Below are positions 906 through 40,271 of a DNA stretch of 40,810 bases, piece after piece. Position 1 is the stretch's first letter; every line of letters starts with the position of its first letter. Source of the stretch: a virus. The stretch lies in UHGV virus genome UHGV-0204427. One strand, 5' to 3'. The notes beneath the pieces are model-generated. The model was not told the DNA's origin. It did no database searches and was given only the letters and a program-made list of their open reading frames with translations. The position numbers and the translations under genes were made by a program.

Positions 906-2202
906 CGATACAAAGCACAAGCACATCATACTAACATCAGGGCGCGCCGGCACGAAGTCCAGCTATGCAGCTGTCCGGGCTGACTATCAGTTAATCAGTG
1001 ATAAGAACGGCTCCGTGGTTGTCCTGCGTAAGCATCACAACAAACTGCGTAAGACGGTGTATAAGGAGATGCTGAGAGGAATCAATCGCCTGCAGGTACC
1101 AAAGGATAGGTTTTATATAACCAAGTCCCCTATGGAGATAACTTACAAGAAATATGGAACTACGATGTACTTCGCCGGTTCCGATGGTATTGACGATACA
1201 AAGGGTATCATTGATGAGGATAAACCCATAAAGCTTGTCGTGCTGGATGAGCTGACCGAGTTCTTTGATGACGGGGATGGCGAGGATGAGCTGGCTAACA
1301 TCGAGGCCACCTTTGTACGTGGGAATAAGAGCGGTTTCCAGATGGTATATCTGTACAACCCGCCGAAGAATCCCAATGCGCCCATCAACCTGTGGTGCAA
1401 AAAGATGGAGCAGCGCCCTGACTGCATCCACATCCATACGGATTACCGAGATGTGCCTGTAGACTGGCTGGGCCAGGATCTGATTGATTCAGCCAGGATG
1501 ATGGAGCAGTCAGACGAGAAGATGTATCGCTGGACCTGGCTGGGTGAGTCAATCGGAGTTGATGAACTGATTTATTACATGTACAGCGCCAAGAACCGGT
1601 TCAGGCCTCCAAAAGAAACAAGATACCGTCTTATCGGAATCGGCGTCGATTATGGCCAGCAGAATGCCACCACGTACCAGCCCTACGGTCTCAATCTGGA
1701 CCGTAAGAAGCTGGAAGGCCTAAAGGAGTATTATCATTCTGGCCGAGATTCCGGAAGACAGAAAAGTCCGTCGGAGTATGCCAGAGATTTCATCGGATTA
1801 ACGGATGCGCTGCATGAGACCTATAAGTGCAGTTGCTTTTATGTATTTATTGACCCTTCCGCAGCCGGACTTGCGGAGGAAATTAAACGGCAGGCAGTGC
1901 GATGTGATTATCAGATATCCATTAAGCTGGCCGAAAATGACGTGAAAGTAGGTATCCAACGTGTACAGAAATGCCTTTCTTATGGTGTCCTGCAGATATC
2001 CCCGGAACAGCCAAAACTGGACTGGGAGATGGGCTTGTATGAATGGGATAAGAAATCCATTGAGAAAGGCAAGGAGGTTCCTGTAAAAGAGAATGACCAT
2101 GGCTGTGACGCAACCAGATATTGTGTTATGGGGATGTGGAAAAAGATTAAATATTTCCTTCCAAAGGCTGATAGGGAGGATGAGGAAGGTGAGGACGGAT
2201 GA
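841..2202 (+). CDS. terL: terminase large subunit (PBSX/Terminase_3-like ATPase + nuclease)
   Basis: Walker A-like 'TSGRAGTKSS'. Acidic Walker B 'LVVLDELTEF'. Length 453 aa. Strong RBS GGAGGTGG 6 nt before ATG 841. Overlaps the terS end by 65 nt. Precedes the portal. Confidence 0.85.
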   Translation: MRQKKQVRISEIVIPKYLPIFNDTKHKHIILTSGRAGTKSSYAAVRADYQLISDKNGSVVVLRKHHNKLRKTVYKEMLRGINRLQVPKDRFYITKSPMEITYKKYGTTMYFAGSDGIDDTKGIIDEDKPIKLVVLDELTEFFDDGDGEDELANIEATFVRGNKSGFQMVYLYNPPKNPNAPINLWCKKMEQRPDCIHIHTDYRDVPVDWLGQDLIDSARMMEQSDEKMYRWTWLGESIGVDELIYYMYSAKNRFRPPKETRYRLIGIGVDYGQQNATTYQPYGLNLDRKKLEGLKEYYHSGRDSGRQKSPSEYARDFIGLTDALHETYKCSCFYVFIDPSAAGLAEEIKRQAVRCDYQISIKLAENDVKVGIQRVQKCLSYGVLQISPEQPKLDWEMGLYEWDKKSIEKGKEVPVKENDHGCDATRYCVMGMWKKIKYFLPKADREDEEGEDG

Positions 2203-3611
2203 ACGTAATTGCGTATCTGAATAAAAAGGGGTACGATACAGTGCCGAGTGACCATTACCACATGGTTCAGGTCTGGAAAAGTTGGTACCAGAACAAGGTA
2301 CGGGGATTCCATCGGTACCGGATTAACAATGGTTCCAATACAGTGAAGTGCGACCGGTTATCGGCAGGTATGGCGAAGATGGTCAGCGAAGATATTGCAG
2401 ATGACTTGCTAAATGAAAAGGTAAAAATCACGCTCAGCGAACCTACAGTGCAGGAATATGTTGATAAGATTTTGAGAGAGAACAACTGGGCCGTGCAGTC
2501 AAATACGTATCAGGAGCGTAAAGCCTATACTGGAACGGTGGCCTATGTTCCATATCTGGACGGTGTGGAAGTTGATGAGGAAGGAAACGTGATTGCGGGC
2601 ACGGGAACTATTCGGCTCAATTATTTCGAAGCATCCAACATTTATCCGCTGTCATGGCTAAATGGGATTGTGGAGGAGTGCGCATTTGTGTCCATCCACA
2701 CTGTAAAGGGAAAGAAATATGCCCACATCCAGATGCACACCAAGGAGGGTACTGGCGAGTATGTGATATATAACTGTGTAGTAGAGTGTACGAACGGGGC
2801 AGGGCGGGAAATGGAATCGAAAGAGTGGAGGAAACTTATTCCTTTTCAATCTATGTCAGAGAGAACTTTTACGGGCTCGAAGAAGCGTCAATTTGTCATT
2901 GACCGATTGAACATCGTTAATAACATGGACCCGGACAGTCCCATGGGTGTAGCGGTGTTTGCTAATGCTATTGACCAGCTTCGTGGGATTGATATAGCTT
3001 ATGACAGCTATGTGAACGAGTTTGTCCTGGGGAAGAAACGAATATTTGTTGCGCCTGAGATGTTGTCTATGAATGACAGCGGGGCGCCCGTATTTGACCC
3101 CAATGACGTAACCTTTTACCAGCTGCCAGAGGACAGCATGAAAGAAGGGGAAGCCATACATGAGGTAAATATGGAGATACGCGCGGAGGCCCACAGCCGT
3201 GCAATCAACGATTTTCTCAATATTCTTTCGGTTAAGTGTGGGTTTGGTACTCAGCATTATCGGTTTGAGAACGGGAACATCCAGACGGCCACGCAGGTTA
3301 TCAGCGAGAATTCGGACTTGTATAAGACGGTTGTCAAGCATGAGATTATCCTTGACAGCGCCTTAAAGGAATTGGTGGCTATTATCTTACGTTTGGGCAA
3401 TGTTCTGGGAGCTGGCCTGAACGAATCCGTTGAAATCACGATAGACTTTGATGATTCAATCATCGAGGATAAGGGAACCGAGCGGAAAGAGGACCGGCAG
3501 GACGTGTCCATGGGGGTTATGGCTTTGTGGGAATATCGTGCAAAATATTACAATGAGGACGACAAGACGGCAAAGGCGAACGTACCAGAACAGGCGGAGG
3601 TAATTGAATGA
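2199..3611 (+). CDS. portal protein (SPP1 gp6-like)
   Basis: 470 aa. ATGA overlap with terL. Position between terminase and minor head protein. Overall resemblance to SPP1-type portals. Confidence 0.8.
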   Translation: MNVIAYLNKKGYDTVPSDHYHMVQVWKSWYQNKVRGFHRYRINNGSNTVKCDRLSAGMAKMVSEDIADDLLNEKVKITLSEPTVQEYVDKILRENNWAVQSNTYQERKAYTGTVAYVPYLDGVEVDEEGNVIAGTGTIRLNYFEASNIYPLSWLNGIVEECAFVSIHTVKGKKYAHIQMHTKEGTGEYVIYNCVVECTNGAGREMESKEWRKLIPFQSMSERTFTGSKKRQFVIDRLNIVNNMDPDSPMGVAVFANAIDQLRGIDIAYDSYVNEFVLGKKRIFVAPEMLSMNDSGAPVFDPNDVTFYQLPEDSMKEGEAIHEVNMEIRAEAHSRAINDFLNILSVKCGFGTQHYRFENGNIQTATQVISENSDLYKTVVKHEIILDSALKELVAIILRLGNVLGAGLNESVEITIDFDDSIIEDKGTERKEDRQDVSMGVMALWEYRAKYYNEDDKTAKANVPEQAEVIE

Positions 3612-4867
3612 CGCAGGGAGATATGGAGAAACTGGCAATACTCATACAGCAGAACATGTCATCTCTGGAAACCCGTGTCATGTCGGATATTGTCCGCAGA
3701 ATTCATATTAATGGAGAAATTACATCGACAGCTGACTGGCAGATGAACCGGCTATATCAGATGGGACTAGGTAAGGACGAAATAAAAAAGGCCATCGTGG
3801 AATCCTTGAAGCTTACGGATAAACAGGCGGAGAAGCTTTTTAAGGATGCCATTGGGAAGGAGTATACACGCAATCAGCAGCTTTATGAGAGACAAGGTAA
3901 GAAATGGATACCGTTTGATGAAAATGAAGAGCTCCAGGACCTTGTGACATCTATTAGCAAGCAGACAGGGGAGGAATTGAGGAACATCACGCAGTCACTT
4001 GGGTTTGCGATTCGGGGGCCGAATGGGAGAATCATACAGTCACCTCTTCTGGAATTCTATCAAGGTACTCTCGATGATGCTATGATGAACATAGCCAGCG
4101 GTACGTTTGACTATGGGACGGTAATTAGGCGGGCTATCCAGACCATGACAAACAGCGGGCTCAGGAGCATTGACTATGATAGCGGGGGGTCAAACCGGGT
4201 GGACGTAGCGGCCAGAAGAGCCGTAATGACTGGATTCAATCAGCTGCAGGCCAAGGTCAATGAGCAGGTGGCTCAGGATTTAAAAACCGATTATTTTGAG
4301 GTATCCTGGCACGGAGGGGCAAGGCCGGAGCATCAGGCATGGCAGGGTGGTATATACAGCCACAAACAGCTTGTGTCGGTCTGCGGCCTTGGAAGCGCGG
4401 CAGGATTGTGCGGAGCAAACTGTTACCATTCATATAATGCCTTTATCCCTGGAGTGTCAGTCCGTACCTATACGGATGAGCAGCTGTATCAGATGAATGC
4501 CCAGGAGAACCAGCCAAAGGAGTATAACGGGAAAGAGTACACAACCTATGAAGCTTTACAGAAACAGAGAAAACTGGAAACGCTCATGCGGAAACAGCGA
4601 CAGGATATCAAACTGTTGCAAACAGGTGGCGCTTCCAAGGACGATCTTCTTGCAGCTAAAAGCCGGTACCGCTCCACGATGACTCAGTATGCAGAGTTTT
4701 CAGGGAAAATGAATCTGCCGCAGCAGAAAGAGCGGGTGTATATGGATGGTCTTGGCCAGATGGTATCAGAGAAAGAGAAGGTTATGTCTCATAAGTTACC
4801 AGCTAAAGAAAAAATGACTTTTATGCAGAAAAAAGAAGCCATTGACAATAATGAGAAAGGTTGGTGA
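3608..4867 (+). CDS. minor head / head morphogenesis protein (SPP1 gp7 / Phage_Mu_F family)
   Basis: Hallmark segment 'SWHGGARPEHQAWQGGIY' characteristic of the gp7/Mu F family. ATGA overlap with the portal. Confidence 0.75.
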   Translation: MTQGDMEKLAILIQQNMSSLETRVMSDIVRRIHINGEITSTADWQMNRLYQMGLGKDEIKKAIVESLKLTDKQAEKLFKDAIGKEYTRNQQLYERQGKKWIPFDENEELQDLVTSISKQTGEELRNITQSLGFAIRGPNGRIIQSPLLEFYQGTLDDAMMNIASGTFDYGTVIRRAIQTMTNSGLRSIDYDSGGSNRVDVAARRAVMTGFNQLQAKVNEQVAQDLKTDYFEVSWHGGARPEHQAWQGGIYSHKQLVSVCGLGSAAGLCGANCYHSYNAFIPGVSVRTYTDEQLYQMNAQENQPKEYNGKEYTTYEALQKQRKLETLMRKQRQDIKLLQTGGASKDDLLAAKSRYRSTMTQYAEFSGKMNLPQQKERVYMDGLGQMVSEKEKVMSHKLPAKEKMTFMQKKEAIDNNEKGW

Positions 4868-5103
4868 CTGATGTGTCAAAGTATAATTGGGATGAAATGG
4901 AGCTTTGCAAAGAGTGCCATTACAAAAACGAGAATCCGGATTTATGTAATTTCAACATTCCGCCAGAGGAAAAGCCATCTGCATTTAATTCCCTTACCAG
5001 TTGTGGTAGATTTCTGAGGGAATCAAAATGGCAACGTTTAGGCGAAGAGCAGCGAAAGTATTATGAGCAGCGTCATGAAAGAAGCAGTGGTCATAAGGAA
5101 TAA
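4861..5103 (+). CDS. small Cys-rich hypothetical protein (start uncertain: TTG 4861 / GTG 4873 / ATG 4897)
   Basis: 'CKECHYKNENPDLCNF...SCGRF' is a possible zinc-binding motif. Sits between gp7-like and prp. Confidence 0.35.
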   Translation: MVTDVSKYNWDEMELCKECHYKNENPDLCNFNIPPEEKPSAFNSLTSCGRFLRESKWQRLGEEQRKYYEQRHERSSGHKE

Positions 5104-5138: not shown

Positions 5139-5152
5139 TTGCGATATCGCAA
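5139..5152. promoter_or_regulatory. 14-bp perfect palindrome TTGCGATATCGCAA immediately upstream of prp RBS (copy 1 of 2)
   Basis: Read directly. The same 14-mer recurs at 19889-19902 upstream of the endolysin. Confidence 0.5.
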
Positions 5153-5165
5153 CAGGGAGGAATCA

Positions 5166-5474
5166 GTGGTTACAATAGTATTTACGAATCATGATGGAGT
5201 GTGCACCGGCCTTGAAGCATTAGGTCATGCAGGATATGGTGAAATTGGAAAAGACATTGTCTGTGCTGCCGTATCCGCCTTAATTCAAGGAGCAGTCTTA
5301 TCCATTGAGCAGCTGGCCGAAAAGCCGGTGGTCCAGGAGAAAGAAGAAGGGAGAATTTCCTATCATATCCGGGACCCGGACGAAGTAACACAGGTATTGT
5401 TTGCCAGCCTGGAGCTGTCACTTGCAGAATTACAAGCAGAATATAGGAACTATTTAACAGTGTGTCATGGATAA
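5166..5474 (+). CDS. prp: Prp-like cysteine protease (ribosomal-processing cysteine protease / DUF464 family, phage capsid-scaffold N-terminal processing)
   Basis: 'GHAGYGEIGKDIVCAAVSALIQ' matches the Prp catalytic His/Cys region. GTG start 5166 with GGGAGG RBS (the track's 5139 start is a TTG inside the palindrome). Downstream scaffold and capsid carry LQLFA cleavage motifs. Confidence 0.7.
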   Translation: MVTIVFTNHDGVCTGLEALGHAGYGEIGKDIVCAAVSALIQGAVLSIEQLAEKPVVQEKEEGRISYHIRDPDEVTQVLFASLELSLAELQAEYRNYLTVCHG

Positions 5475-5494
5475 CATGACACTTTTCTTTTGTC
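5462..5494 (+). terminator. hairpin GTGTCATG-gataa-CATGACAC followed by TTTTCTTTTGTC, overlapping the prp stop; candidate partial terminator/attenuator
   Basis: 8-bp perfect stem plus T-rich tract, read from the sequence. Confidence 0.4.
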
Positions 5495-5557
5495 TAAAAC
5501 GTGATGACAGGAAAAGCATCGGAAACAGTTCACGCACTTAAAACGGAGGAATAAAAA

Positions 5558-6133
5558 TTGAGAAAGAAATTTGATTTACAGCTTTTTGCGGACGGTAGCG
5601 GAAGCGGCTCTGAGGGAAACCAGGGTAATAATGCCGGTGATGACGGAAACAAGGGAACCTATAGTTTTGAGCAGGCGGAGGAAATAGCCAACGCAAGGGC
5701 GCATCGTGCGGAGCAGGCGGCCCTGAAATCCTATTTCCAGCAGCAGGGTATGACCGAGGATGAGGTCAAGGCTGCCCTTGCTGATTATAAGACGAATAAG
5801 GAGAAGCAGAAACCCGATGTGTCTGCAATCGAGAAGGAACGGGATGAGGCCAATAAAAAAATCCAGCAGTATGAGAATGAAAAGGTCCTGTCTGGCATGA
5901 AGGTCAGGACGGAAGATTTGGATTATGTGATGTTCAAGGTCAGCGCCCTGGTGACAGACAAAAAGGACTTTAAGACAGCGGCGACCGAATGGCTGAAGGA
6001 TAATCCGAGATATAAAGAAGGCGGCACCTACCGTATGTCGTCCGGGACGCCTGCTTCTGAGGGAAACAAAGGGACAGATACTGGAAATGAGGCTATTAAC
6101 AACATGATTCGAGGAGCATTCGGAAGAAAGTGA
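5558..6133 (+). CDS. scaffolding protein with N-terminal Prp-cleavable leader (MRKKFDLQLFA^DGSG)
   Basis: TTG start with GGAGG RBS. 'FDLQLFA' mimics the ribosomal L27 N-terminal cleavage motif. Charged helical body typical of scaffolds. Position before the capsid gene. Confidence 0.65.
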   Translation: MRKKFDLQLFADGSGSGSEGNQGNNAGDDGNKGTYSFEQAEEIANARAHRAEQAALKSYFQQQGMTEDEVKAALADYKTNKEKQKPDVSAIEKERDEANKKIQQYENEKVLSGMKVRTEDLDYVMFKVSALVTDKKDFKTAATEWLKDNPRYKEGGTYRMSSGTPASEGNKGTDTGNEAINNMIRGAFGRK

Positions 6134-7158
6134 GGAAGTATATGTATAAAGTTATAAATGGGAGAGATATCCCTGTAAATGTAATGAATCTTCAGCTGTT
6201 TGCCGGTTCGGCGAATATCATTGACCGCACCGGGGCTGAAGCGCTGATTCCGGAGCAGACCAGCAGGGAGATTATCCAGGGCGTAACAGAGCAGTCCACA
6301 GTTCTGGCAATGGGCCGTAAGCTGCCCAACATGTCCTCCAACCGGACGGTTATGCCTGTATTAGATATGCTGCCGGTGGCCTATTTTGTCAACGGAGATA
6401 CCGGGACAAAGAAAACCACCAAGATGGCGTGGGACAAGAAAAAGATTTACGCGGAGGAGATTGCGGTTATTGTACCGATTCCAGAAGCGGTTTTGGATGA
6501 TGCAGATTATGACATTTGGGGGGAGGTTAAGCCGCGCCTGGTGGAAGCCTTTGGCAAAGTGATTGACAGTGCGATCTTTTTCGATGTTGGCAAGCCTGAT
6601 AACTGGCGTAACGGTATTTTTGCTACAGCCACAGCCGCCGGCGCTGTTGTTACAGCCACCAGCGATATGTATAAGGACATCATGGGTACCGCCGGTGTAA
6701 TTGCAAAGATTGAAAAGTCCGGTTATATGCCCACTGGACATGTGGCAGATATTAGCTTGAGGTCAGAGCTCCGCGAATTGGTGGATAATAATAACCGGCC
6801 GTTGTTTAAAACTGACATGCAGACATCGACCCAGTATAGCCTGGATGGCAATGCCATGAAGTTTCCACGGAATGGATTTTGGGATGCCACCAAGGCTAAG
6901 ATGATATCCGGTGACTTTGACCAGCTGGTATACTCCATGAGGCAGGACATCACCTTTAAGTTGTTTGACCAGGGCGTGGTGCAGGATCCATCAACAGGGG
7001 ATATCGTATATAACCTCATGCAGAATGATATGGTGGCCATGCGCGCCGTCATGCGTCTTGGGTGGGAAATCCCGAACCCCATCAACAGTCTGGAAACAGA
7101 CAAGACCAAGCGCTGCCCGTTTGCGGTGTACGCTCCCAAGGCGGATGCTGGAGCATAA
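6130..7158 (+). CDS. major capsid protein with N-terminal Prp-cleavable leader (…VMNLQLFA^GSANI…); start GTG 6130 or ATG 6142
   Basis: 342 aa. Position after the scaffold. 'NLQLFAGS' motif about 20 aa from the N-terminus. Confidence 0.75.
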   Translation: MRKYMYKVINGRDIPVNVMNLQLFAGSANIIDRTGAEALIPEQTSREIIQGVTEQSTVLAMGRKLPNMSSNRTVMPVLDMLPVAYFVNGDTGTKKTTKMAWDKKKIYAEEIAVIVPIPEAVLDDADYDIWGEVKPRLVEAFGKVIDSAIFFDVGKPDNWRNGIFATATAAGAVVTATSDMYKDIMGTAGVIAKIEKSGYMPTGHVADISLRSELRELVDNNNRPLFKTDMQTSTQYSLDGNAMKFPRNGFWDATKAKMISGDFDQLVYSMRQDITFKLFDQGVVQDPSTGDIVYNLMQNDMVAMRAVMRLGWEIPNPINSLETDKTKRCPFAVYAPKADAGA

Positions 7159-7173
7159 AGGAGTTGATTCAGT

Positions 7174-7554
7174 ATGTATGCTGATTATAGTTATTACCTG
7201 GCCGGATATCTCCATAAGGATTCCGGCCTGATTCCAGAGGCGGATTTCCCGGCCTGCTCCCAGAGGGCCAGTGCCAAAATGGACTATCTTACTTGGGGCA
7301 GAATAACGGACGTACAGGCGGCAGGGGCGGAAATACGATCATGCTGCTGTGAGATGGCAGAGACCATTTATAGATATGAACAGTCAAAGAATAATGAGTC
7401 TGGCGCACCAGTGGCATCCTGGAGTAATGACGGCGAGTCAGGAAGCTATGACATGTCCAATTCAGATTATACGGAGGAGGGGCACAACCGGAGGGTCGGT
7501 CAGATTGCCCAAAAATACCTGCTCCGCCTTGGATTGTTGAACAGGAGGTGCTAA
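7174..7554 (+). CDS. head-tail connector (gp6/gp15-like) protein, putative
   Basis: 126 aa. First of four small genes between capsid and major tail. RBS AAGGAG. Confidence 0.4.
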   Translation: MYADYSYYLAGYLHKDSGLIPEADFPACSQRASAKMDYLTWGRITDVQAAGAEIRSCCCEMAETIYRYEQSKNNESGAPVASWSNDGESGSYDMSNSDYTEEGHNRRVGQIAQKYLLRLGLLNRRC

Positions 7555-8842: not shown

Positions 8843-9358
8843 ATGAGATTAAAGGAATTAATGGATGGTATCACCCCGAAGCCAGATTACGAAGGTTGGG
8901 TAACCAATGACGACATGGTATTTGCCATTGACACGGCCAATACTTCGAACACTGAGACGGAGCCGGGAGATTACGCTGTCGTGCAGATGGGGATTGAAGG
9001 TTTGGATTCTCAGCTGAATCCCGTAACCCAGGATAAACAGTACATCCGTGCTGGGCAATCCACTATGCGGACAGGAACCCAGAGAAGCTTTGCCGTAACC
9101 GGAGACCGATACATTGGCGATGAAGCCCAGGATTATATTTTAAGCCACAAAATGAAATATGGAACCGGGAATGCTGTAATTACCAATTATGTGTATTTTG
9201 ACATCCTGACAGGAAAGGGAGAGAAGGGTCAGGTGTCCGTGATTGTCAACAGCGATGGCTCCGGTAATTCTGGGGAAAGCGCGGCCATTGATGTTGAGTT
9301 CAAGAAGGTTGGTAATACGCCGGCTGAGTATACGTACGTAGCACCCGCGGGAGTATAG
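8843..9358 (+). CDS. major tail protein (TP901-1/Phage_tail_2-like)
   Basis: 171 aa. Position before the chaperone pair and the tape measure. Ig-like C-terminal flavour. Confidence 0.6.
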   Translation: MRLKELMDGITPKPDYEGWVTNDDMVFAIDTANTSNTETEPGDYAVVQMGIEGLDSQLNPVTQDKQYIRAGQSTMRTGTQRSFAVTGDRYIGDEAQDYILSHKMKYGTGNAVITNYVYFDILTGKGEKGQVSVIVNSDGSGNSGESAAIDVEFKKVGNTPAEYTYVAPAGV

Positions 9359-10492: not shown

Positions 10493-13400
10493 GTGGGAAC
10501 TATGGCGGATGGTACCGTCAAAATTGGGACCGAACTTGATGAATCCGGTCTAAAAAAGGGGTTAAGTGGATTAGGAAACTTTGCAAAGCAGGGATTTTCT
10601 GCCATAGGCGGGGCGGCTTCTGCGATGGCAAAAACCTCTCTTGCAGCTATTGGGGCTGTATCAGCGGGAATGGCAGCAGCTGGAACCGCAGCATTGGCTG
10701 TAGGTCAAGAATTCGAGACCAGTTTTGCAAAGGCCAGTACGCTATTTGGGGATGTTAATGTTGATACAGACGGACTAAAGAGAAAGCTGTTAGAGGTTTC
10801 AGACGCTACCGGAATTGCCGCGAATGAGCTTAATGAGAGTTTATATAGCGCTTTATCTGCAGGCATACCGGCCACAGAAGATATGTCTGAGGCCACGGCC
10901 TTTCTGGAATCATCCGCAAAACTGGCAAAAGCCGGCTTTACGGATATGGACACAGCGTTATCCGCCACTGCAAAAACTTTGAACGCGTACGGCCTAGATG
11001 TATCTGAAGCGGACCGGATTAATAAAATTCTTATTCAGACCCAAAACAAAGGTATTACTACCGTGGATGAGCTGGGGGCATCCCTTGCCCAGGTGACTCC
11101 AACGGCGGCGGCATTTGGTGTGAGTTTTGAACAAGTGGGCGCTTCCTTGGCAAATATGACGGCTGCAGGAACCCCGACAGCACAAGCCACCACCCAGTTG
11201 AACAGTCTAATTGCGGAATTAGGCAAGCAAGGGACCATGGGCTCCAAGGCGCTGCAGGAGGCAGCTAAAGGAACCGAATATGCGGGCATGAGCTTTAATC
11301 AGATGATGGCTGCGGGTGTCCCATTGAATAAGGTCCTTGACATGATGCAGAAATCTGCTGATGATTCAGGAAAATCCATGGTTGATCTGTTCAGCTCTAT
11401 TGAGGCTGGCAAGGCCGCGCTTGCATTATCAGGGGAGAATTCGGAGAAGTTCGCCGAGAACCTGGAAGCGATGGGGACCAGCGCCGATGTAGTGACAGAG
11501 GCCTATGACAAGGTATCCAATACGCTGCAGAACAAAGTCGGTAAAATCCAAAATTCTGCAAAGAACCTTGGTATAGACATTTACAACAGTGTTCAGGAGC
11601 CTCTTAGTGGGCTGGCAGACCGTGGTCTGGAGTATATGGACCAGCTGTCACAGGCCCTGTCAGAAGGCGGCCTTGACGCAATGGTTGACGTTGGAGCCAG
11701 TATCATCGCGGATATTGCCCTTGGGATTGCAGGCCAGCTTCCTTCCTTGATTGAGACAGCAACAGGCTTCCTGGTTGGTTTCATCGAAGCAATCAGCGAA
11801 AACCTTCCGATGCTGATGGAGGCAGGCGGACAGATTATTGGAGCATTGGCTTCCGGCATTGCCCAGCTGGCTGGGCAACTTATCCCTATTGGTTGGACCA
11901 TCATAAGCACAATCATCCAGGGTATCGTTTCAAGGGCTCCGCAACTGTATGCACAGGCTGGAAAACTGCTCCAGCAGTTTACGGCAGCAATCAGCACGCA
12001 GCTCCCACAGCTGGTACAGCAGGGGACCGCTGCCCTTGGTCAATTTGTCCAAGGCCTGCTACAAAATATCCCGTCACTGATTTCCAGCGCCGGCGATATC
12101 ATCAGCCAGCTGTATGACGCATTTTTGAGCGCGCTGCCCCAAATCATGGAGGCGGGTATCCAATTACTGGGACAGTTGGCACAAGGTATTTTATCCAATC
12201 TGCCGGAGGCCATCGGGGCTGCAGCTGAAGCACTGATTCAGATTGTAGCAACAATAGCCAGCCACATGCCGGAAATCCTACAAAAAGGAATTGAGCTGCT
12301 AGGAGAACTTGCGGCGGGAATTATACAGGCCATCCCGGGACTAGTCGGTAAGATTCCTGAGGTTATCACATCTGTAAAAGACAAGTTCATGGAATTTGAC
12401 TGGCTGCAGATTGGCAGGGACATCGTAGCGGGAATTGCCAATGGCCTTAAGAATTCCCTTGGAACGATCATAGAAGCGGCAAAGAGCGTGGGTGAGGCTG
12501 CGCTGAATGGACTGAAAGGCCTGCTTGGAATTCATTCGCCGTCCCGTGTGTTCCGGGATGAGGTTGGTAAAAACATCGCCCTTGGTATTGCGGAGGGAAT
12601 CGTAGGCAATAAGAAGTATGCCAAAAAGAGTGCTGAAGATATCGCGGATGCCATGCTGCAGGCAGCCAAAAAACGGTTGGATAATACCAAGGTATATCAG
12701 GATATGAGCCTTGCGGATGAGGCTGCATACTGGGATGCCGTACGTGTCCAGATTAAAGAGGGGACGCAGGCAAGGATTGATGCAGATAAGGAATATCTGC
12801 AGGCCAAGAAAAACCTGGACAATAAAATGGCTGACCTGGAACGAGATTATGCAGATAAGATCGGCCATGTCTATGAGAACCTGCAGAAGAATATCCGTGA
12901 CCTACAGGATACATACCGTGATGAGGTACAGTCCAGGACTAAGGATATCATGCGTTCCATGAATCTCTTTGATGAGTTCACGGCAACAACCGAAAAATCG
13001 ACAGCTGACCTGATTAAGAATCTAAAGAGCCAGGTGAACGGCCTGAATGAGTGGTCTAATAACCTGCAGAAGCTGGAGCGCCGGGGAGTAACCGGTGATA
13101 TGCTGGATGAACTGCGTGACCTTGGCGTAGATGCAGCTGGCGAGATTGCTCTTATGACCAGGATGTCAGATTCAGAATTGAATGAATACATCTCCTTATG
13201 GAAACAGAAGCAAAGAATTGCCAGCAGTGAAGCCCAGACGGAACTGGAGCCACTGCTTAAAAGTACCCAGCAACAGATTATCCGGATGCAGCAGGAGGCT
13301 GCTGCGGAGCTGGAGAAGTACAAGCAGCAGTATGTGGATGCAATGTCTGAAATCGGTGTGGAAATTCAGCAGCCGCTCCAAGAAATCAGGGATACATTGC

Positions 13401-14062
13401 TGTCAACTGTATCGGAAGCTGTAAAGCTTATCGCCGGGACTGTGTCTGGTGAAGCGGATGACCAGGGGAATGTCAGCCAGTTCGCGGAACTTGCGAAGAG
13501 CATACTGGATGCATCATCCTCTCTTCCGGAGGATTTTACCGGACTGGGCGAAGATACGATTGCCGGAATGATACAGGGGCTGGACGGAAAGTCCGGGGAA
13601 CTGTATGCGGCGATGGCGCGAATTATACAAGAGACGATTCAAGCTGCCAAGGAAACCGCAGAAATCCACTCCCCATCCCGTATCATGAGGGACCTGATTG
13701 GCCGTAACATGATTGCAGGTATTGGCGTGGGATTTGATATGGAGGCTGATGACCTAAATGATAAGGCTAGTGGAATCATTGCTGGCGCAGTATCCTCCAT
13801 GCAGAAAGCGAGTGCAAAAAAGTTTGTATCGGAGATGCAGGTCCAGTCCTTTAAAACCACAGTGGGAATGGACAGCACCGCAAACTTACGGTATGCGCCT
13901 GATAAGGGGGAGAGCGACGGGGAAGAACACCGTCCCATTATCCTTGAAAAGGGCAGTATCGAAGTACCGGTGAGCATTGATGGACGCACCGTGGCAAAGG
14001 TCACAGCTCCCTACATGGACACAGAACTGGGAAAAATCAAGGACAAGAAGGATAGAGGCTGA
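10493..14062 (+). CDS. tail tape measure protein (1189 aa; likely start ATG 10502)
   Basis: Size. Gly/Ala-rich helical N-terminus. Coiled-coil centre. Position before Dit/Tal. Internal duplicated 'IHSPSR…RD…G.N…GI' module. Confidence 0.9.
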   Translation: MGTMADGTVKIGTELDESGLKKGLSGLGNFAKQGFSAIGGAASAMAKTSLAAIGAVSAGMAAAGTAALAVGQEFETSFAKASTLFGDVNVDTDGLKRKLLEVSDATGIAANELNESLYSALSAGIPATEDMSEATAFLESSAKLAKAGFTDMDTALSATAKTLNAYGLDVSEADRINKILIQTQNKGITTVDELGASLAQVTPTAAAFGVSFEQVGASLANMTAAGTPTAQATTQLNSLIAELGKQGTMGSKALQEAAKGTEYAGMSFNQMMAAGVPLNKVLDMMQKSADDSGKSMVDLFSSIEAGKAALALSGENSEKFAENLEAMGTSADVVTEAYDKVSNTLQNKVGKIQNSAKNLGIDIYNSVQEPLSGLADRGLEYMDQLSQALSEGGLDAMVDVGASIIADIALGIAGQLPSLIETATGFLVGFIEAISENLPMLMEAGGQIIGALASGIAQLAGQLIPIGWTIISTIIQGIVSRAPQLYAQAGKLLQQFTAAISTQLPQLVQQGTAALGQFVQGLLQNIPSLISSAGDIISQLYDAFLSALPQIMEAGIQLLGQLAQGILSNLPEAIGAAAEALIQIVATIASHMPEILQKGIELLGELAAGIIQAIPGLVGKIPEVITSVKDKFMEFDWLQIGRDIVAGIANGLKNSLGTIIEAAKSVGEAALNGLKGLLGIHSPSRVFRDEVGKNIALGIAEGIVGNKKYAKKSAEDIADAMLQAAKKRLDNTKVYQDMSLADEAAYWDAVRVQIKEGTQARIDADKEYLQAKKNLDNKMADLERDYADKIGHVYENLQKNIRDLQDTYRDEVQSRTKDIMRSMNLFDEFTATTEKSTADLIKNLKSQVNGLNEWSNNLQKLERRGVTGDMLDELRDLGVDAAGEIALMTRMSDSELNEYISLWKQKQRIASSEAQTELEPLLKSTQQQIIRMQQEAAAELEKYKQQYVDAMSEIGVEIQQPLQEIRDTLLSTVSEAVKLIAGTVSGEADDQGNVSQFAELAKSILDASSSLPEDFTGLGEDTIAGMIQGLDGKSGELYAAMARIIQETIQAAKETAEIHSPSRIMRDLIGRNMIAGIGVGFDMEADDLNDKASGIIAGAVSSMQKASAKKFVSEMQVQSFKTTVGMDSTANLRYAPDKGESDGEEHRPIILEKGSIEVPVSIDGRTVAKVTAPYMDTELGKIKDKKDRG

Positions 14063-20971: not shown

Positions 20972-21322
20972 ATGGTAAATAACTTCGGAAAGTTTTGCCG
21001 CAAGCTGAGAATTGATAATGGAGAATTATTAGCGGATATGGCTAAAAAGCTCGGGGTTTCATCTGCATTTTTGTCAAAGGTAGAAAATGGAAATAAGAAA
21101 CCACCGAAGGAATGGCAAGAGGAAATTGTTTCATTGTATCAGTTGGATAATCGTAAAGCGGAGGAATTAGCTGATTGTATGTTTGATGCATTGAATTTCC
21201 ATAGTATTGATATGTCTGGGTATTCAGATGGAAATCGGGATATGCTTCTGTCCTTCGCTAGAAAGCTTAACACCATGGATGACAGCAAAATAGACCAGTT
21301 TAGAAAAATGATTGAGAAGTAA
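20972..21322 (+). CDS. XRE-family helix-turn-helix regulator
   Basis: 'FGKFCRKLRIDNGELLADMAKKLGVSSAFLSKVENGNKKP' is a classic HTH_XRE. Low GC. Confidence 0.75.
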   Translation: MVNNFGKFCRKLRIDNGELLADMAKKLGVSSAFLSKVENGNKKPPKEWQEEIVSLYQLDNRKAEELADCMFDALNFHSIDMSGYSDGNRDMLLSFARKLNTMDDSKIDQFRKMIEK

Positions 21323-21340
21323 CTTGGAGGTGCTGCAATA

Positions 21341-21856
21341 TTGAATATTCGTGCTACAGCGTTATCAAGAGTATCGATAAGAGAGTTGACGACAGAGGTT
21401 AGAAAAATTTGTGGGCTGCAGGAGCAGTTGTATTTTCCAATAGTAGAATTCATTGAGTGGGTCTTAGGCGACCCCAATAATGATTTCGATTATGAAATAG
21501 TCCCGATATCTGAGATGAAAGATACATATGGAACAACAAATACCGCAAGTAATATTATGCGAATAAGGGAAGATGTATATGAAGGTGCCGTTAAAGGAAA
21601 CGCAAGAGATAGATTCACTCTGTGCCATGAGTTGGGGCATTTCTTATTGCATCAGCCTAAATTGATAAGTTATGCAAGAGGTAATGTCCCGGTATACTGT
21701 CAGCCAGAATGGCAAGCCAACACATTTGCAGCAGAACTGATGGCGCCTTATCATTTAGTGAAAAACATGTCGGCAAATGAAATTGCACAGAAATGCGGAA
21801 TGTCATTGACTGCAGCAAATATTCAATATAAAACGTATCATAAGTTTGATGTTTAG
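21341..21856 (+). CDS. ImmA/IrrE-family zinc metallopeptidase (COG2856)
   Basis: HEXXH in 'LCHELGHFLLH'. Typical size of 171 aa. Directly downstream of the XRE partner. Confidence 0.75.
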   Translation: MNIRATALSRVSIRELTTEVRKICGLQEQLYFPIVEFIEWVLGDPNNDFDYEIVPISEMKDTYGTTNTASNIMRIREDVYEGAVKGNARDRFTLCHELGHFLLHQPKLISYARGNVPVYCQPEWQANTFAAELMAPYHLVKNMSANEIAQKCGMSLTAANIQYKTYHKFDV

Positions 21857-22506: not shown

Positions 22507-23874
22507 TTATAGCTGCTTTAGCTTGATATTCACATTATCATCATCAATTATGATGCGGTCTATAATCATAGTCAGGCAGGCCCTTTTTTCATCCAAGCTT
22601 CCTGCATCAGAAAGCGACATCAAGGTATCTCTCGCGGTTATCATTTCAGCAAGAGTTGTTACCGGCACATTTTTGGGTTTTGATATATTCAGTAGTGCTT
22701 CCTTCTCTTTATTAAGCGCATCCATTTTTTCCTGTATGGTTTCGATTGGGATTCCGCTGACTTGATACAGGTCTATCAGTTTTCCAATCTGCTTATCTAT
22801 CTCATTTAGGCGGATTGAATAATCTGTGACCGGGACCGGAACAGGGTGTCCACTCTTTAATTTAGAAAAGTCTAAACGCATTATGTAATCTAACACCAGT
22901 CTGTCTAATTCCTCTATCTTCCATTTTTTATTCTTGCAGTTGGGGTCAACAATGTACTTTTTATCTCCCTTGGTACGACTATAACAAGAATAATTACCAT
23001 GCTCACCGTGGAACCGTGCCCCACACTTACCACAATAGACGAGGCTTGAAAGAAGGGTGCTCGCCTTAAACGGAGACCGCTTGAAGGTATCAGAGGCCCT
23101 CCTGGAGCTGTTAAACAGGTCCTGTACCTGCCGGAATGTTTCTTCGGATATGATTGGTTGATGATTGCCTTGATAGGCTACCCCCTTAAACTTTACTTTT
23201 CCTATATACAGTTCGTTTTTAAGGACATTCCGGACTAAGACCTCACTGCTCCATCCACCATATTTTTGTTGCATATACTGCCAACAGTTGTGTATGGAAT
23301 ACCCCTTTAAAAACCGATTATACAAATCCTTGACCTGTATGGCCTCATAGTCATTTATTATGAGCTCCCCGTCAATATAGTCATAGCCGGTTGGTGCGTT
23401 GCCACCCCCATGAAAATATCCATTCTTGGCTCTGCCGATGCGTCCCATGGTAAAACGCTCCGTAATCTGGTCTTTCTCCAGCTGGGCAAAGACCGACAGT
23501 ATTCCAATCATGGCCCGGCCAAATGGGGTGGATGTATCAAAATTCTCATTCACAGAAACAAAATCCACATTCTTGGCCAGAAAACAATCCTCAATCAACA
23601 TGAGAGTATCCTTCTGGCTTCTGGATAAGCGGTCAAGCTTGTAAACAATGACAGAATCTATCAATCCTTTGTCGATGTCTTGGAGCATCTGCTGCAGGGC
23701 AGGCCTATTAACGTTTCCGCCGGAATAGCCGCCGTCGGTATATATCTTGACTATCTGAATATCTTTTGCTTTGCAGTATGCCTTCAAACGGTCAGTCTGT
23801 TCCTCTATACTATAGTTTTCTAACTGATTGTCCGTAGATACACGGACATAACATGCGCCTTTAATCATATTCAT
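22507..23874 (-). CDS. large serine recombinase (phage integrase type: resolvase catalytic domain + recombinase domain + zinc ribbon + coiled coil); start possibly the 3rd codon ATG at 23868
   Basis: 'YVRVSTDNQ' catalytic Ser motif. 'SRSQKDTL'. Cys pairs 'CGKCGARF…C'. 455 aa. Confidence 0.9.
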   Translation of the reverse strand: MNMIKGACYVRVSTDNQLENYSIEEQTDRLKAYCKAKDIQIVKIYTDGGYSGGNVNRPALQQMLQDIDKGLIDSVIVYKLDRLSRSQKDTLMLIEDCFLAKNVDFVSVNENFDTSTPFGRAMIGILSVFAQLEKDQITERFTMGRIGRAKNGYFHGGGNAPTGYDYIDGELIINDYEAIQVKDLYNRFLKGYSIHNCWQYMQQKYGGWSSEVLVRNVLKNELYIGKVKFKGVAYQGNHQPIISEETFRQVQDLFNSSRRASDTFKRSPFKASTLLSSLVYCGKCGARFHGEHGNYSCYSRTKGDKKYIVDPNCKNKKWKIEELDRLVLDYIMRLDFSKLKSGHPVPVPVTDYSIRLNEIDKQIGKLIDLYQVSGIPIETIQEKMDALNKEKEALLNISKPKNVPVTTLAEMITARDTLMSLSDAGSLDEKRACLTMIIDRIIIDDDNVNIKLKQL

Positions 23875-25644: not shown

Positions 25645-25854
25645 ATGTTACTTATTTTATTGTCTGTCCTGGTTTCAACGATTACCGCAGCCATCGTCAC
25701 GATTAAGATAACGGCCGCGGTAAAAAGAGAACTAATGACCTACGTCGAAGAAATGTGTGACCTGAATATTGAACAATCACAAAAAATAAAAAACTATGCT
25801 CTGAAAACGGTTGAAATGCTTGTTCGCAATATCAATCAAGACAAGCCTGTATAA
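25645..25854 (+). CDS. 69-aa small membrane protein
   Basis: Hydrophobic N-terminus 'LLILLSVLVSTITAAIVTI'. RBS GAGGTGAG. Confidence 0.4.
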   Translation: MLLILLSVLVSTITAAIVTIKITAAVKRELMTYVEEMCDLNIEQSQKIKNYALKTVEMLVRNINQDKPV

Positions 25855-26590
25855 GGGCTGTACCGAAAGGCGTTAATCCACATATTTTTCCAACAATTTC
25901 AGAATGAAGATATTTCCCCATTTTGATACGTTCTTCTTCGCACTGTTTATAGAAATCTGAATTTTTAAATGGAGAGTCATCAGCGGGGTGAACGAGAGCG
26001 TCATCATCAAATGCAAGTATGCCTAACCGCATCAGTGATGAAAGTGAAAAAGATATATACCTTGCTTCGTGCTGGTTCGGATAAGTATCAAAAGTATAGG
26101 GAACTTTGTTATAAAAGTCATTCTCGCTATTATTGAAATATGTGTATGTAATCAATCGTTCTGGTTTGTTGCTGACATAGTATTTTAAAATTTTAGCATC
26201 ATAAGGGCTCATTTGTTTTAGTGTCTCTGAGAAAGATGGATGTATGAGTTCCTTATAGTCACTATGGCATGAACGTGCTATTAGGTTAGCAAACAGATTT
26301 CTAAGTTCTTCGGAATTGATGCAAGAATCTACATTATCTAATGCAAGCATTATTGTTTGATAATCAGGTTCTATAAGCTTTTCAGATGGAATTTGTTCTA
26401 TACAGAGTTTTAATCGCGCCTCCAATTCAATTAAGCCGTATTTTTCATAGAGACGCCTTTTCTCAGCTTTATAGGATATTGAGCCAAACTTAAGATAGAT
26501 GGCGTCTTTGATGAGAGTTCCAATAGACATTGCTGGTTCGTTAGTAAGGTTTTTAATTGCATTATCAACACAGTTAGGCATGAGTTCCAT
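25832..26590 (-). CDS. Abi-alpha-like (DUF4393) abortive-infection/exclusion candidate, ~252 aa
   Basis: 'IKNLTNEPAMSIGTLI…RNLFANLIARSCHSDYKELIHPSFSETLKQMSPYDAKILKY' recalls the DUF4393 core. Minus-strand gene in the lysogeny region. Confidence 0.5.
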   Translation of the reverse strand: MELMPNCVDNAIKNLTNEPAMSIGTLIKDAIYLKFGSISYKAEKRRLYEKYGLIELEARLKLCIEQIPSEKLIEPDYQTIMLALDNVDSCINSEELRNLFANLIARSCHSDYKELIHPSFSETLKQMSPYDAKILKYYVSNKPERLITYTYFNNSENDFYNKVPYTFDTYPNQHEARYISFSLSSLMRLGILAFDDDALVHPADDSPFKNSDFYKQCEEERIKMGKYLHSEIVGKICGLTPFGTALIQACLD

Positions 26591-26729
26591 AATAATATTC
26601 CCTTCACTAAATACTCGGCGCTGCAACGCCTGTAAGTACAGTATAGGTCAGGGGGAGGAAAAAGACAAGACGGACAACGTAAGAAGTACAACCAGTACCA
26701 CATACAATTTACCAGAGAGGGGTGGTGAT

Positions 26730-39245: not shown

Positions 39246-40271
39246 ATGATGGCAGAACAGGTGAATATAGATCGAGTAATCATGCAGGTAATGGATAATG
39301 TGACGCAGGTGGTTGAGGAACAGGAACGGCTGAATGAGGTCAAACAGATATTGTATATGTGCCTGTCCAGGTTTCAAATATTTGAGGAGGAAACAGCGCT
39401 TTCTGTGGACGTGGACCGCACGGTGGAGTACTTGAAACAATATCTTCTGCAGATGAAGTTGGATGGATGTACTGACGGGAGCATTCAGGGGTATAAGAAT
39501 AACATTAAGAACATGCTGAATTATATCAATAAGAATGTGACTGAGATTACATACCAGGACCTCAAGGGATACATGGCCTATGGGAAGCTGGTCAGAAAAT
39601 GGAAAGACAGGACTTACAACAGTCAGCTGATATCCATTCGTAGTTTTTTCTCATTCCTTTATGCGGAGGATATGCTTCCGGATAATCCGGCCAAGAAACT
39701 TAAGGAAACTAAGGTGGAATACCGGATAGGTCCCACACTGCAACCCGAGCAGCGAGAAATGGTTAGATGCGCATGTGCGGATGAGCTGGAGCTGGCAATA
39801 TGTGACATGTTATATGTGACAGGGATACGTGTGTCTGAGTTGTGCGGCATGAATCAGTCAGACGTTGACTTTAATCGTAAGACGGCAATCGTATATGGGA
39901 AGGGGCGTAAGGAACGCCAGGTATGCCTCAATGGACAGGTAGCCCTGCACCTTTGGAGATATCTTCAAAGTCGGAATGACGACAATCCAGCCTTATTTGT
40001 TTCCCCACATGGACAATGCAGGCGCATCGGGGCCCAGACGGTTAGGAATATCCTGAAACGAATTAAAGAGAGGGACGAAGAGTTGGCGGATGTCAAGGTC
40101 ACCCCGCATGTGTTCCGCCGTACTGTGGGAACCGATATGATTAACAAAGGGGCGCCGGCAGAGATAGTGAAGGAGGTACTGGGCCATGTCAAGATTGATA
40201 CAACGCTTAAGTGCTATGCAGCTATTAGTAAGGACACCGTGCGGCAGGCACATGCACGCTTTGTAGGATAG
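39246..40271 (+). CDS. tyrosine site-specific recombinase (XerC/D-phage integrase family) with N-terminal SAM-like domain
   Basis: 'TGIRVSELCG' (Arg I). 'HVFRRTVGTDM' (H-x-x-R). 'LGHVKIDTTLKCYAAIS' (His…Tyr nucleophile). Confidence 0.8.
   Translation: MMAEQVNIDRVIMQVMDNVTQVVEEQERLNEVKQILYMCLSRFQIFEEETALSVDVDRTVEYLKQYLLQMKLDGCTDGSIQGYKNNIKNMLNYINKNVTEITYQDLKGYMAYGKLVRKWKDRTYNSQLISIRSFFSFLYAEDMLPDNPAKKLKETKVEYRIGPTLQPEQREMVRCACADELELAICDMLYVTGIRVSELCGMNQSDVDFNRKTAIVYGKGRKERQVCLNGQVALHLWRYLQSRNDDNPALFVSPHGQCRRIGAQTVRNILKRIKERDEELADVKVTPHVFRRTVGTDMINKGAPAEIVKEVLGHVKIDTTLKCYAAISKDTVRQAHARFVG

Follow-up and report, generated by a model that had tools for sequence, protein, structure and literature searches.

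The 40,810-nucleotide (40.8-kb) virus genome sequence UHGV-0204427, the whole of which we analyzed and refer to as the window, contains a trio of adjacent genes at positions 5166-7158 that encode a protease of the Prp family, a scaffolding protein and a major capsid protein. Both structural proteins begin with a short leader resembling the N-terminal end of the L27 ribosomal protein, a known Prp substrate. The features of the trio are as follows:

5166..5474, + strand: prp, Prp-family cysteine protease (MEROPS C108) of 102 amino acids (aa), catalytic His21 and Cys33; PF04327, phrog_4478
5558..6133, + strand: scaffolding protein (putative precursor), 191 aa, TTG start; phrog_2303 head scaffolding, 1.4e-30
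5558..5587, + strand: 10-aa scaffold leader MRKKFDLQLF; cleavage predicted at the bond joining F (5585-5587) to A (5588-5590)
6142..7158, + strand: major capsid protein (putative precursor), 338 aa, HK97 fold; PF05065, 1.1e-28; phrog_10, 1.5e-52
6142..6201, + strand: 20-aa capsid leader MYKVINGRDIPVNVMNLQLF; cleavage predicted at the bond joining F (6199-6201) to A (6202-6204), predicted mature N-terminus AGSANIIDRTGAEALIPE

An earlier note on this DNA had recognized a Prp His/Cys signature at 5166-5474, and the profile score, the conserved dyad and the predicted fold all bear it out. The hidden Markov model (HMM) search that it suggested gave a full-length match above the curated cut-off: the 102-aa translation, which includes GHAGYGEIGKDIVCAAVSA, aligns with Pfam family PF04327 (Peptidase_Prp) at profile positions 1-89 of 90 (E=7.7e-24, 84.2 bits, cut-off 27). 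It also matches phrog_4478 ('peptidase'), and a phmmer search against solved structures returned Staphylococcus aureus Prp (SaPrp; 4peo/7kld, E=7e-10), Streptococcus mutans SMU.848 and Streptococcus pneumoniae 2idl. Because the GHA(G/D)..G.DIVCA block (GHA holding the His, IVC the Cys) lines up between the phage Prp and SaPrp, His21 and Cys33 can be identified as the catalytic dyad, equivalent to SaPrp His22/Cys34. Both residues, in the contexts GHAG and DIVCA, are invariant in an alignment of six phage and six cellular relatives (alignment A1) as well as in 95 distinct phage Prps. The AlphaFold2 model of the phage protein has a predicted local distance difference test (pLDDT) value of 88 and superimposes on 2g0i, 7kld and 7jvs (SMU.848 and SaPrp) with template modeling (TM) scores of 0.87-0.90 and root-mean-square deviations of 1.6-2.4 Å; its sole low-confidence stretch is the loop at residues 23-27, which separates the two catalytic residues. 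Endopeptidase activity at LQ(F/L)F-A sites, the hyphen marking the bond cut, is predicted for this protein.

We place the start of prp at GTG 5166, which has a GGGAGGA Shine-Dalgarno sequence 4 nt upstream, fits profile position 1 and corresponds to the start that gene callers chose in related contigs. Position 5139 only marks the earliest TTG in the longest open reading frame (ORF). More than 20 metagenomic contigs encode an identical protein, whose nr entry reads 'YsxB-like protein [Caudoviricetes sp.]'. The gene is flanked by those for the minor capsid and scaffold proteins and not by rplU and rpmA, the location of a cellular ribosomal orthologue.

A consensus scan also detected a terminator-like hairpin, GTGTCATG-GATAA-CATGACAC followed by the T-run TTTTCTTTTG, at 5462-5492 (+), overlapping the stop codon of prp just upstream of scaffold and capsid, two highly expressed genes. 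Relatives with a Prp of only 50-75% identity retain both the hairpin and the T-run. The C-terminal VCHG tail of the protein is conserved in this clade of phage Prps and absent from cellular Prps; since the conserved V-C-H-G codons encode the 5' arm of the hairpin, the tail may reflect a constraint at the RNA level and not protein function. Between prp and the scaffold gene, the spacer AAAACGTGATGAC (5496-5508, a single copy in the window) is kept as CCAAAACGTGATG in three related loci (L015, L020 and L021) and might be a late promoter or a regulator site.

The next two genes, which the earlier note had taken for a scaffold and a capsid gene with LQLFA leaders, are identified as such by phrog_2303 and PF05065, and the motif is located at both N-termini. 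For the scaffold, the N-terminus is M(TTG)RKKFDLQLFADGSG and the protein begins MRKKFDLQLFADGSG; TTG 5558 is the sole start codon from the upstream in-frame stop to the motif, and relatives, in which the leader follows the pattern M[RY]K[KR][FI][DN]LQLFA, have ATG there. The capsid ORF includes ...VNVMNLQLFAGSANI, and the protein from ATG 6142 begins MYKVINGRDIPVNVMNLQLFAGSANIIDR. We consider ATG 6142 the best capsid start because of its GAGGAAG Shine-Dalgarno sequence, the stop codon directly upstream of the equivalent ATG in a relative (L013), and the conservation of residues: the 14 residues ahead of the capsid motif are conserved as protein (MYKVFNGKEIPINV, MNRVFMGKGFPVHA, MYKIISGRELPLNV). 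Gene callers give the same 338-aa product in related contigs. Two other starts were rejected, GTG 6130 because L013 has a stop codon at that place, and ATG 6184 because it lacks a Shine-Dalgarno sequence and lies downstream of residues that are conserved at the protein level. Leaders can drop out in automatic annotation, as in L015, where the capsid was called at 6559-7500 from an internal Met (MIDRSG...) and misses the in-frame upstream leader MRRKPINIQMFAGAT.

A six-frame translation of the window contains LQLFA exactly twice, at the scaffold and capsid N-termini, compared with 0.06 occurrences expected from composition; two or more were found in 2 of 300 nucleotide shuffles. No other window protein bears the tag, including the major tail protein at 8843-9358 (phrog_820), which starts MRLKELMDG. 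The earlier note had described the leaders as copies of the L27 motif, and this is correct. Specifically, L27 in the nearest cellular Prp operons starts MMKMNLQLFA or MLKLNLQFFA, in either case followed by HKKG (in general, M(M/L)K(M/L)NLQ(L/F)FA), and the MNLQLFA string of the capsid leader is an exact copy of the L27 string in those operons. The proposed position of the cut, after FA, has to be revised: S. aureus Prp cuts the Phe-Ala bond (PMC5744158), one residue earlier. The lengths given for the two leaders, 11 and approximately 20-24 aa, do differ as claimed, while the residues lost through a cut between F and A would number 10 in the scaffold and 20 in the capsid, and both new N-termini would start with Ala.

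Relatives whose Prp is 50-100% identical to that of the window keep both leaders and have the genes in unchanged order (minor capsid, Prp, scaffold, capsid), although one sub-lineage has a capsid leader of 11 residues (MRRKPINIQMF, ahead of A) instead of 20. We measured the association between protease and leader in 80 capsid homologues (41-89% identity) from GTDB bacterial genomes, 69 of which had enough upstream sequence, by scoring a Prp HMM match upstream and a leader with the motif on the capsid. With a Prp gene upstream, 34 loci had the leader and 0 did not; with no Prp gene, 2 had it and 33 did not (Fisher's exact p=1.2e-17, from counts that are not phylogenetically independent). The leaderless capsids have their Met 2-6 residues before a conserved IIDR..ALIPE anchor, and the predicted new N-terminus of the Prp-positive capsids falls 3-8 (mostly 4-5) residues before the IIDR anchor. 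These matching distances suggest that the predicted cut would regenerate the native N-terminus of the untagged homologues. Leaderless homologues are also found in non-Firmicute metagenome-assembled genomes (Chloroflexi, Acidobacteria, Ignavibacteria, Armatimonadota), and Prp-positive ones are found essentially only in Clostridia.

Two capsids, those of L101 and L176, have leaders (LQRFA, LQLFA) with no prp within 4 kb upstream (capsid match at 4001), and the L176 scaffold is tagged too. These phages are presumably reliant on host Prp, like staphylococcal phage 80alpha.

The closest named phage is Acutalibacter phage Fontainebleau (ON453893), which Acutalibacter muris carries as an inducible prophage. 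Its capsid is 67.5% identical to that of the window and its genes come in the same order: minor head protein, a 98-aa protein with 'peptidase' as its sole annotation, scaffold, major head protein. Its scaffold, its capsid and a likely tail protein all carry LQLFD, with Asp after the cut where the window has Ala. The Prps diverge much faster than their substrates: that of Fontainebleau is 22% identical to the window Prp over the aligned part, and the Lacrimispora prophage that has an 89% identical capsid has a Prp identity of 43%. The Prp loci concerned are L100:2930-3313, compared with window 5166-5471, and L181:3475-3768. Prp may thus evolve fast, or be exchanged, relative to its substrates.

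In IMG/VR, a pattern-plus-alignment scan with the Prp alignment confirmed Prp relatives on at least 466 viral contigs. We analyzed the best 80 of these at least 466 contigs, 74 of which extended at least 1.5 kb downstream. Counting a motif in the first 50 residues of proteins up to 3.6 kb downstream of Prp, at least one tagged protein was present in 66 of the 74, at least two in 51 of the 74, and three in 27 of the 74. Under the strict motif, 73 of 433 ORFs downstream of Prp were tagged, versus 10 of 387 elsewhere in the same loci (p=1e-12). The tagged families comprise scaffolds, at least four major head PHROGs (10, 544, 267, 840) and four major tail PHROGs (238, 820, 1407, 3099). Tagged major tail proteins occur, for example, at L066:8539-9063, L032:8376-8867, L070:8242-8877 and L085:8586-9110, with starts such as MKKLDLQLFA-EAISGKKIVYLY. 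In other words, the arrangement is common, not rare: it recurs in hundreds of viral contigs, and the window phage is a typical two-substrate member of a large class. A tblastn search of Prp against INPHARED phages returned 3 weak matches, a result that understates the frequency seen in IMG/VR. Such genes are currently labeled 'peptidase', 'YsxB-like' or hypothetical. Full-text searches returned no paper on phage-encoded Prp with L27-like leaders, a negative limited by the possibility that Wall et al. 2015 and 2017 or Martin et al. 1998 mention phage homologues. Preprints of 2025 and 2026 from the 80alpha laboratory credit the extension only to 'some staphylococcal bacteriophages'.

Many of these phages have a residue other than Ala after the predicted cut, the same one in every substrate of a given genome (scaffold, capsid and major tail protein). 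The concordant sets include LQLFT three times, LQLFD three times (Fontainebleau), DLRLFD twice, NLRMFD twice, LQLFE with LQIFE, and LQLFG/LQRFG/LQLFG; example loci with T, D, E or G after the cut are L181:3866-7990, L067, L086 and L051 (among L020-L099 and L100-L181). Scaffold and capsid agreed at this residue in 28 of 35 Prp clusters (60% identity), against 14.3 expected (permutation p<1e-4). Such concordant drift suggests joint evolution of protease and substrates that has led them off the L27 site of the host. There is a loose correspondence between the cut-site class and the residues following the catalytic His, with GHAGY in cellular and Ala-bearing systems, GHANT in many with Thr, and GHAPR, GHAQR and GHAER in many with Asp or Glu; this parallel change is confounded by phylogeny and is only a lead. 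Because the post-cut residue is so often not Ala, roughly one in two Prp loci escaped a strict regular expression ([LIVMF]Q.[FLYMW]A). A match to a looser expression, ITLYN/VTVFN near the N-terminus of a DUF6751 head-tail protein, was a false positive and was excluded. From these patterns one may tentatively propose, although we do not yet lean toward it, that Prp and its tags are a portable module of Firmicutes phages for abundant structural proteins, which would have co-evolved off the L27 site in many lineages and of which the window phage would be an ancestral-like, Ala-bearing representative. If this is true, the phage protease and its substrates would work as a pair apart from the essential processing of L27 in the host and would be insulated from it.

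The window resembles 80alpha in several respects. Capsid gp47 of 80alpha is 25% identical to the window capsid over 309 aa (BLASTP E=1e-20), with LNLQHFASNN aligned to MNLQLFAGSA, and the N-terminus of scaffold gp46, KFNLQFFADQS, aligns with KFDLQLFADGS of the window (BLASTP E=2e-6). Both have the order portal, minor head, slot, scaffold, capsid, where the slot holds the 56-aa hypothetical gp45 in 80alpha and prp in the window; in both, the scaffold and capsid leaders end LQxF-A, and neither has a classical prohead protease. They differ in the length of the leaders (13-14 aa in 80alpha, 10 and 20 aa here), in the host (a bacillus-class staphylococcus versus a Lachnospiraceae clostridium) and in the source of the protease, since 80alpha lacks a Prp gene and relies on the enzyme of its host, which is essential there, whereas the window phage encodes its own. 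The shared order, the gp45 slot and the use of host Prp by 80alpha indicate that the window has an 80alpha-type head module with an acquired prp. The 80alpha-type scheme put forward in the earlier note is therefore right for the homologous scaffold and capsid with their aligned leaders, and needs refinement as to the protease, which 80alpha takes from its host. Prp-dependent trimming of the 80alpha scaffold and capsid is established, and is reportedly credited to Wall et al. 2015 as well. The 80alpha capsid protein (CP) and scaffolding protein (SP) are cut at F-A by host Prp (Kizziah et al. 2017, PMC5744158). In that study, mutants with uncleavable CP or SP were viable, so that cleavage is dispensable, and pre-cleaved SP made no capsids (PMC5744158); taken together, these results imply that it is the intact SP leader, and not its removal, that is essential in 80alpha. 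Other staphylococcal phages bear the motif on a capsid or tail protein (PMC5744158).

Cellular Prps (YsxB, SaPrp, SMU.848) have the same family, fold, His/Cys dyad and GHAGY...DIVCAAVSA signature as the phage Prp. They are approximately 40% identical to it at best and are encoded in rplU-prp-rpmA-obg operons, in contrast to a phage head module whose presumed substrates are structural. A phage-encoded enzyme within MEROPS C108 is already known, namely the protease of Streptococcus phage Cp-1: orf13 was put in that family with Prp (PMC12445089), and it reportedly trims the N-terminus of the major head protein and is experimentally essential for maturation (Martin et al. 1998). We rejected Cp-1 as a direct precedent, because it shares the MEROPS family but has another capsid type and no L27 motif. 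Specifically, Cp-1 is a podovirus with a phi29-type capsid protein (PF25622), as against a PF05065 capsid with a 20-aa L27-like leader; orf13 is a distant C108 member that matches PF04327 weakly and below the cut-off (E=0.0024); it removes 48 residues, with no LQxF-A around residue 48; and its gene is not adjacent to the capsid gene. Classical prohead proteases (HK97 gp4-type S78/U35, ClpP-like S14/S49, T4 gp21-type S77) have the same late-operon position, with portal or minor head genes on one side and scaffold and capsid genes on the other, and also trim head proteins, but they are unrelated serine enzymes that are packaged within proheads and act by removing or degrading delta domains or scaffolds. 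The head module has none, as previously claimed: no ORF from the terminase to the head-tail adaptor has a Pfam or PHROG match to a serine prohead protease. The only other peptidases in the window are ImmA/IrrE M78 in the lysogeny region and a sub-threshold NlpC/P60 match on the putative lysin (E=0.00035, 21 bits, cut-off 23).

Our favored reading, to which as a whole we assign a probability of roughly 80%, is that the window scaffold and capsid are precursors cut at F-A by the phage Prp. The cleavage, the enzyme responsible, its timing and its purpose are what we infer here. The late operon would yield Prp together with pre-scaffold and pre-capsid. Prp, probably a dimer by analogy with the S. 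aureus enzyme, would bind the residues ahead of the cut, (D/N)-L-Q-L-F, and cleave the Phe-Ala bond, producing the new N-termini ADGSGSG... (scaffold) and AGSANIIDR... (capsid). By analogy with 80alpha, this would probably happen before or during procapsid assembly and would not trigger expansion, and the leader, the scaffold's especially, may count for folding or assembly more than the cut does. Host Prp probably recognizes the same sites, in which case the phage copy might add to the capacity available late in infection and free processing from reliance on the host enzyme. A T=7 head requires approximately 415 capsid and a few hundred scaffold subunits, so that a burst would rival the cell's L27 processing load. 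Besides capacity, the possible gains from a second Prp include escape from host regulation and, in the non-Ala lineages, a tag that is free to evolve.

Several considerations weigh against this reading. It is drawn from sequence data on this phage and its close relatives. Since cleavage of CP and SP is dispensable in 80alpha (PMC5744158), to speak of 'maturation by proteolysis' may give the cut too large a role. A Prp of the host's own is almost certainly present and could suffice alone, and L101 and L176 have the leader without prp in the 4 kb upstream, as 80alpha has it without any prp. Finally, the Prp-positive capsids all belong to one clade, whose identity to the query is about 61% or more, and the co-occurrence table is not phylogenetically independent; with the Prp-positive loci forming the closer clade, it reflects few evolutionary events in this capsid family.

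The most serious alternative, possible in our judgment although unlikely, is that the leader is mainly a tag for assembly, folding or recruitment, which would bind Prp or another L27-handling factor as a chaperone or coordinate the folding of scaffold and capsid, and that its removal is incidental. The viable uncleavable CP and SP of 80alpha and the failure of pre-cleaved SP to make capsids (PMC5744158) speak for it, and since head and tail proteins that are unrelated bear the same tag, its role may be a general one in large complexes that assemble themselves. It accounts less well for the dyad, whose strict conservation in phage Prps argues that proteolytic activity is under selection, and for a cut site placed to regenerate the N-terminus of the leaderless homologues. 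A tag of this kind is compatible with cleavage, and the two accounts differ mainly in emphasis.

We regard it as improbable that host Prp alone processes the leaders while the phage Prp acts on host pre-L27 or ribosome biogenesis, or on some other phage or host protein. The host enzyme should recognize a motif identical to that of the cellular L27 leaders, and 80alpha, L101 and L176 have leaders with no prp gene; but here the prp gene is part of the head module, with the genes of its two presumed substrates directly downstream in a conserved order, and the leader is present in 34/34 prp-positive loci and absent from 33/35 prp-negative ones. The drift to T, D, E or G, concordant in two or three substrates, is also hard to explain if the enzyme is that of the host, whose own substrate always has Ala. 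That the motifs match by chance or composition and the small ORF is mis-called or an inactive Prp remnant has only the shortness of a 5-residue motif in its favor, and is already refuted by the two occurrences against 0.06 expected, each in one of two neighboring head genes and no further in than residue 21, by the conservation of the motif in relatives, and by an HMM score three times the cut-off with dyad and fold intact.

Cleavage by the phage Prp would bear on two questions that are open in the current literature, namely why Firmicutes L27 carries a cleavable extension and what role Prp cleavage has in 80alpha capsid assembly. A phage prp beside its tagged substrates is a self-contained system that could be rebuilt in Escherichia coli, which has neither Prp nor the long L27, and the natural cut-site variants (Ala, Thr, Asp/Glu, Gly) offer ready-made specificity variants. 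Prp is also pursued as a narrow-spectrum antibiotic target, and prophage prp genes, common in gut Clostridia, might complement or bypass inhibition of the chromosomal enzyme. A parallel is the mobile-element protease Rrp, recently found in S. pneumoniae. The locus itself is ordinary for its class, and the class is a tractable handle on the unexplained system of L27 extension and Prp.

The window as a whole looks like the complete genome of a temperate siphovirus with a Lachnospiraceae host. The attribution to a Clostridia-type phage in the earlier note agrees with the closest prophages, which are in Lacrimispora and other Lachnospiraceae: among one-genome-per-species bacterial assemblies, the best capsid relative is a prophage in Lacrimispora sp. 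(89% identity), and capsid matches of at least 60% identity are nearly all in Lachnospiraceae, Oscillospiraceae or other Clostridia. We found no tRNA genes in the 40.8 kb and saw no terminal overlap between the window ends. Its head genes, for large terminase, portal, minor capsid protein, scaffold and HK97-fold capsid, form a module of the 80alpha/SPP1 type. The features outside the trio are:

841-2202: large terminase
2199-3611, + strand: SPP1-type portal; PF05133
3608-4867, + strand: minor capsid protein 2, 419 aa; PF06152
4861-5103: Cys-rich ORF, 80 aa
7174 onward: head-tail adaptor, completion proteins and major tail protein (the last at 8843-9358)
10493-14062: tape measure
Downstream of the tape measure: distal tail, holin, lysin
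20972-21856, + strand: helix-turn-helix (HTH) and ImmA/IrrE (M78) pair, after the lysis genes
Region including 22507-23874 and 25832-26626: lysogeny region with serine recombinase, HTH repressor, Abi_alpha and ImmA/IrrE
To the window end: replication module and tyrosine recombinase (39246-40271, + strand)

Two types of recombinase are thus found in one phage, a large serine recombinase (22507-23874, - strand) and the tyrosine recombinase (39246-40271, + strand). An Abi_alpha gene of the abortive-infection type adjoins the HTH repressor (25832-26626, - strand). Minor capsid protein 2 (SPP1 gp7/MuF-like) is 419 aa long in the window and is followed by the Cys-rich 80-aa ORF (3608-5103 for the two). 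Near-identical phages have a minor capsid protein 2 of 582-672 aa with C-terminal ADP-ribosyltransferase or glutamine-amidase toxin domains, and small ORFs downstream (L001:7735-9753, L002:6100-8088, L013:1355-3103). The place directly upstream of prp looks like a polymorphic-toxin slot.

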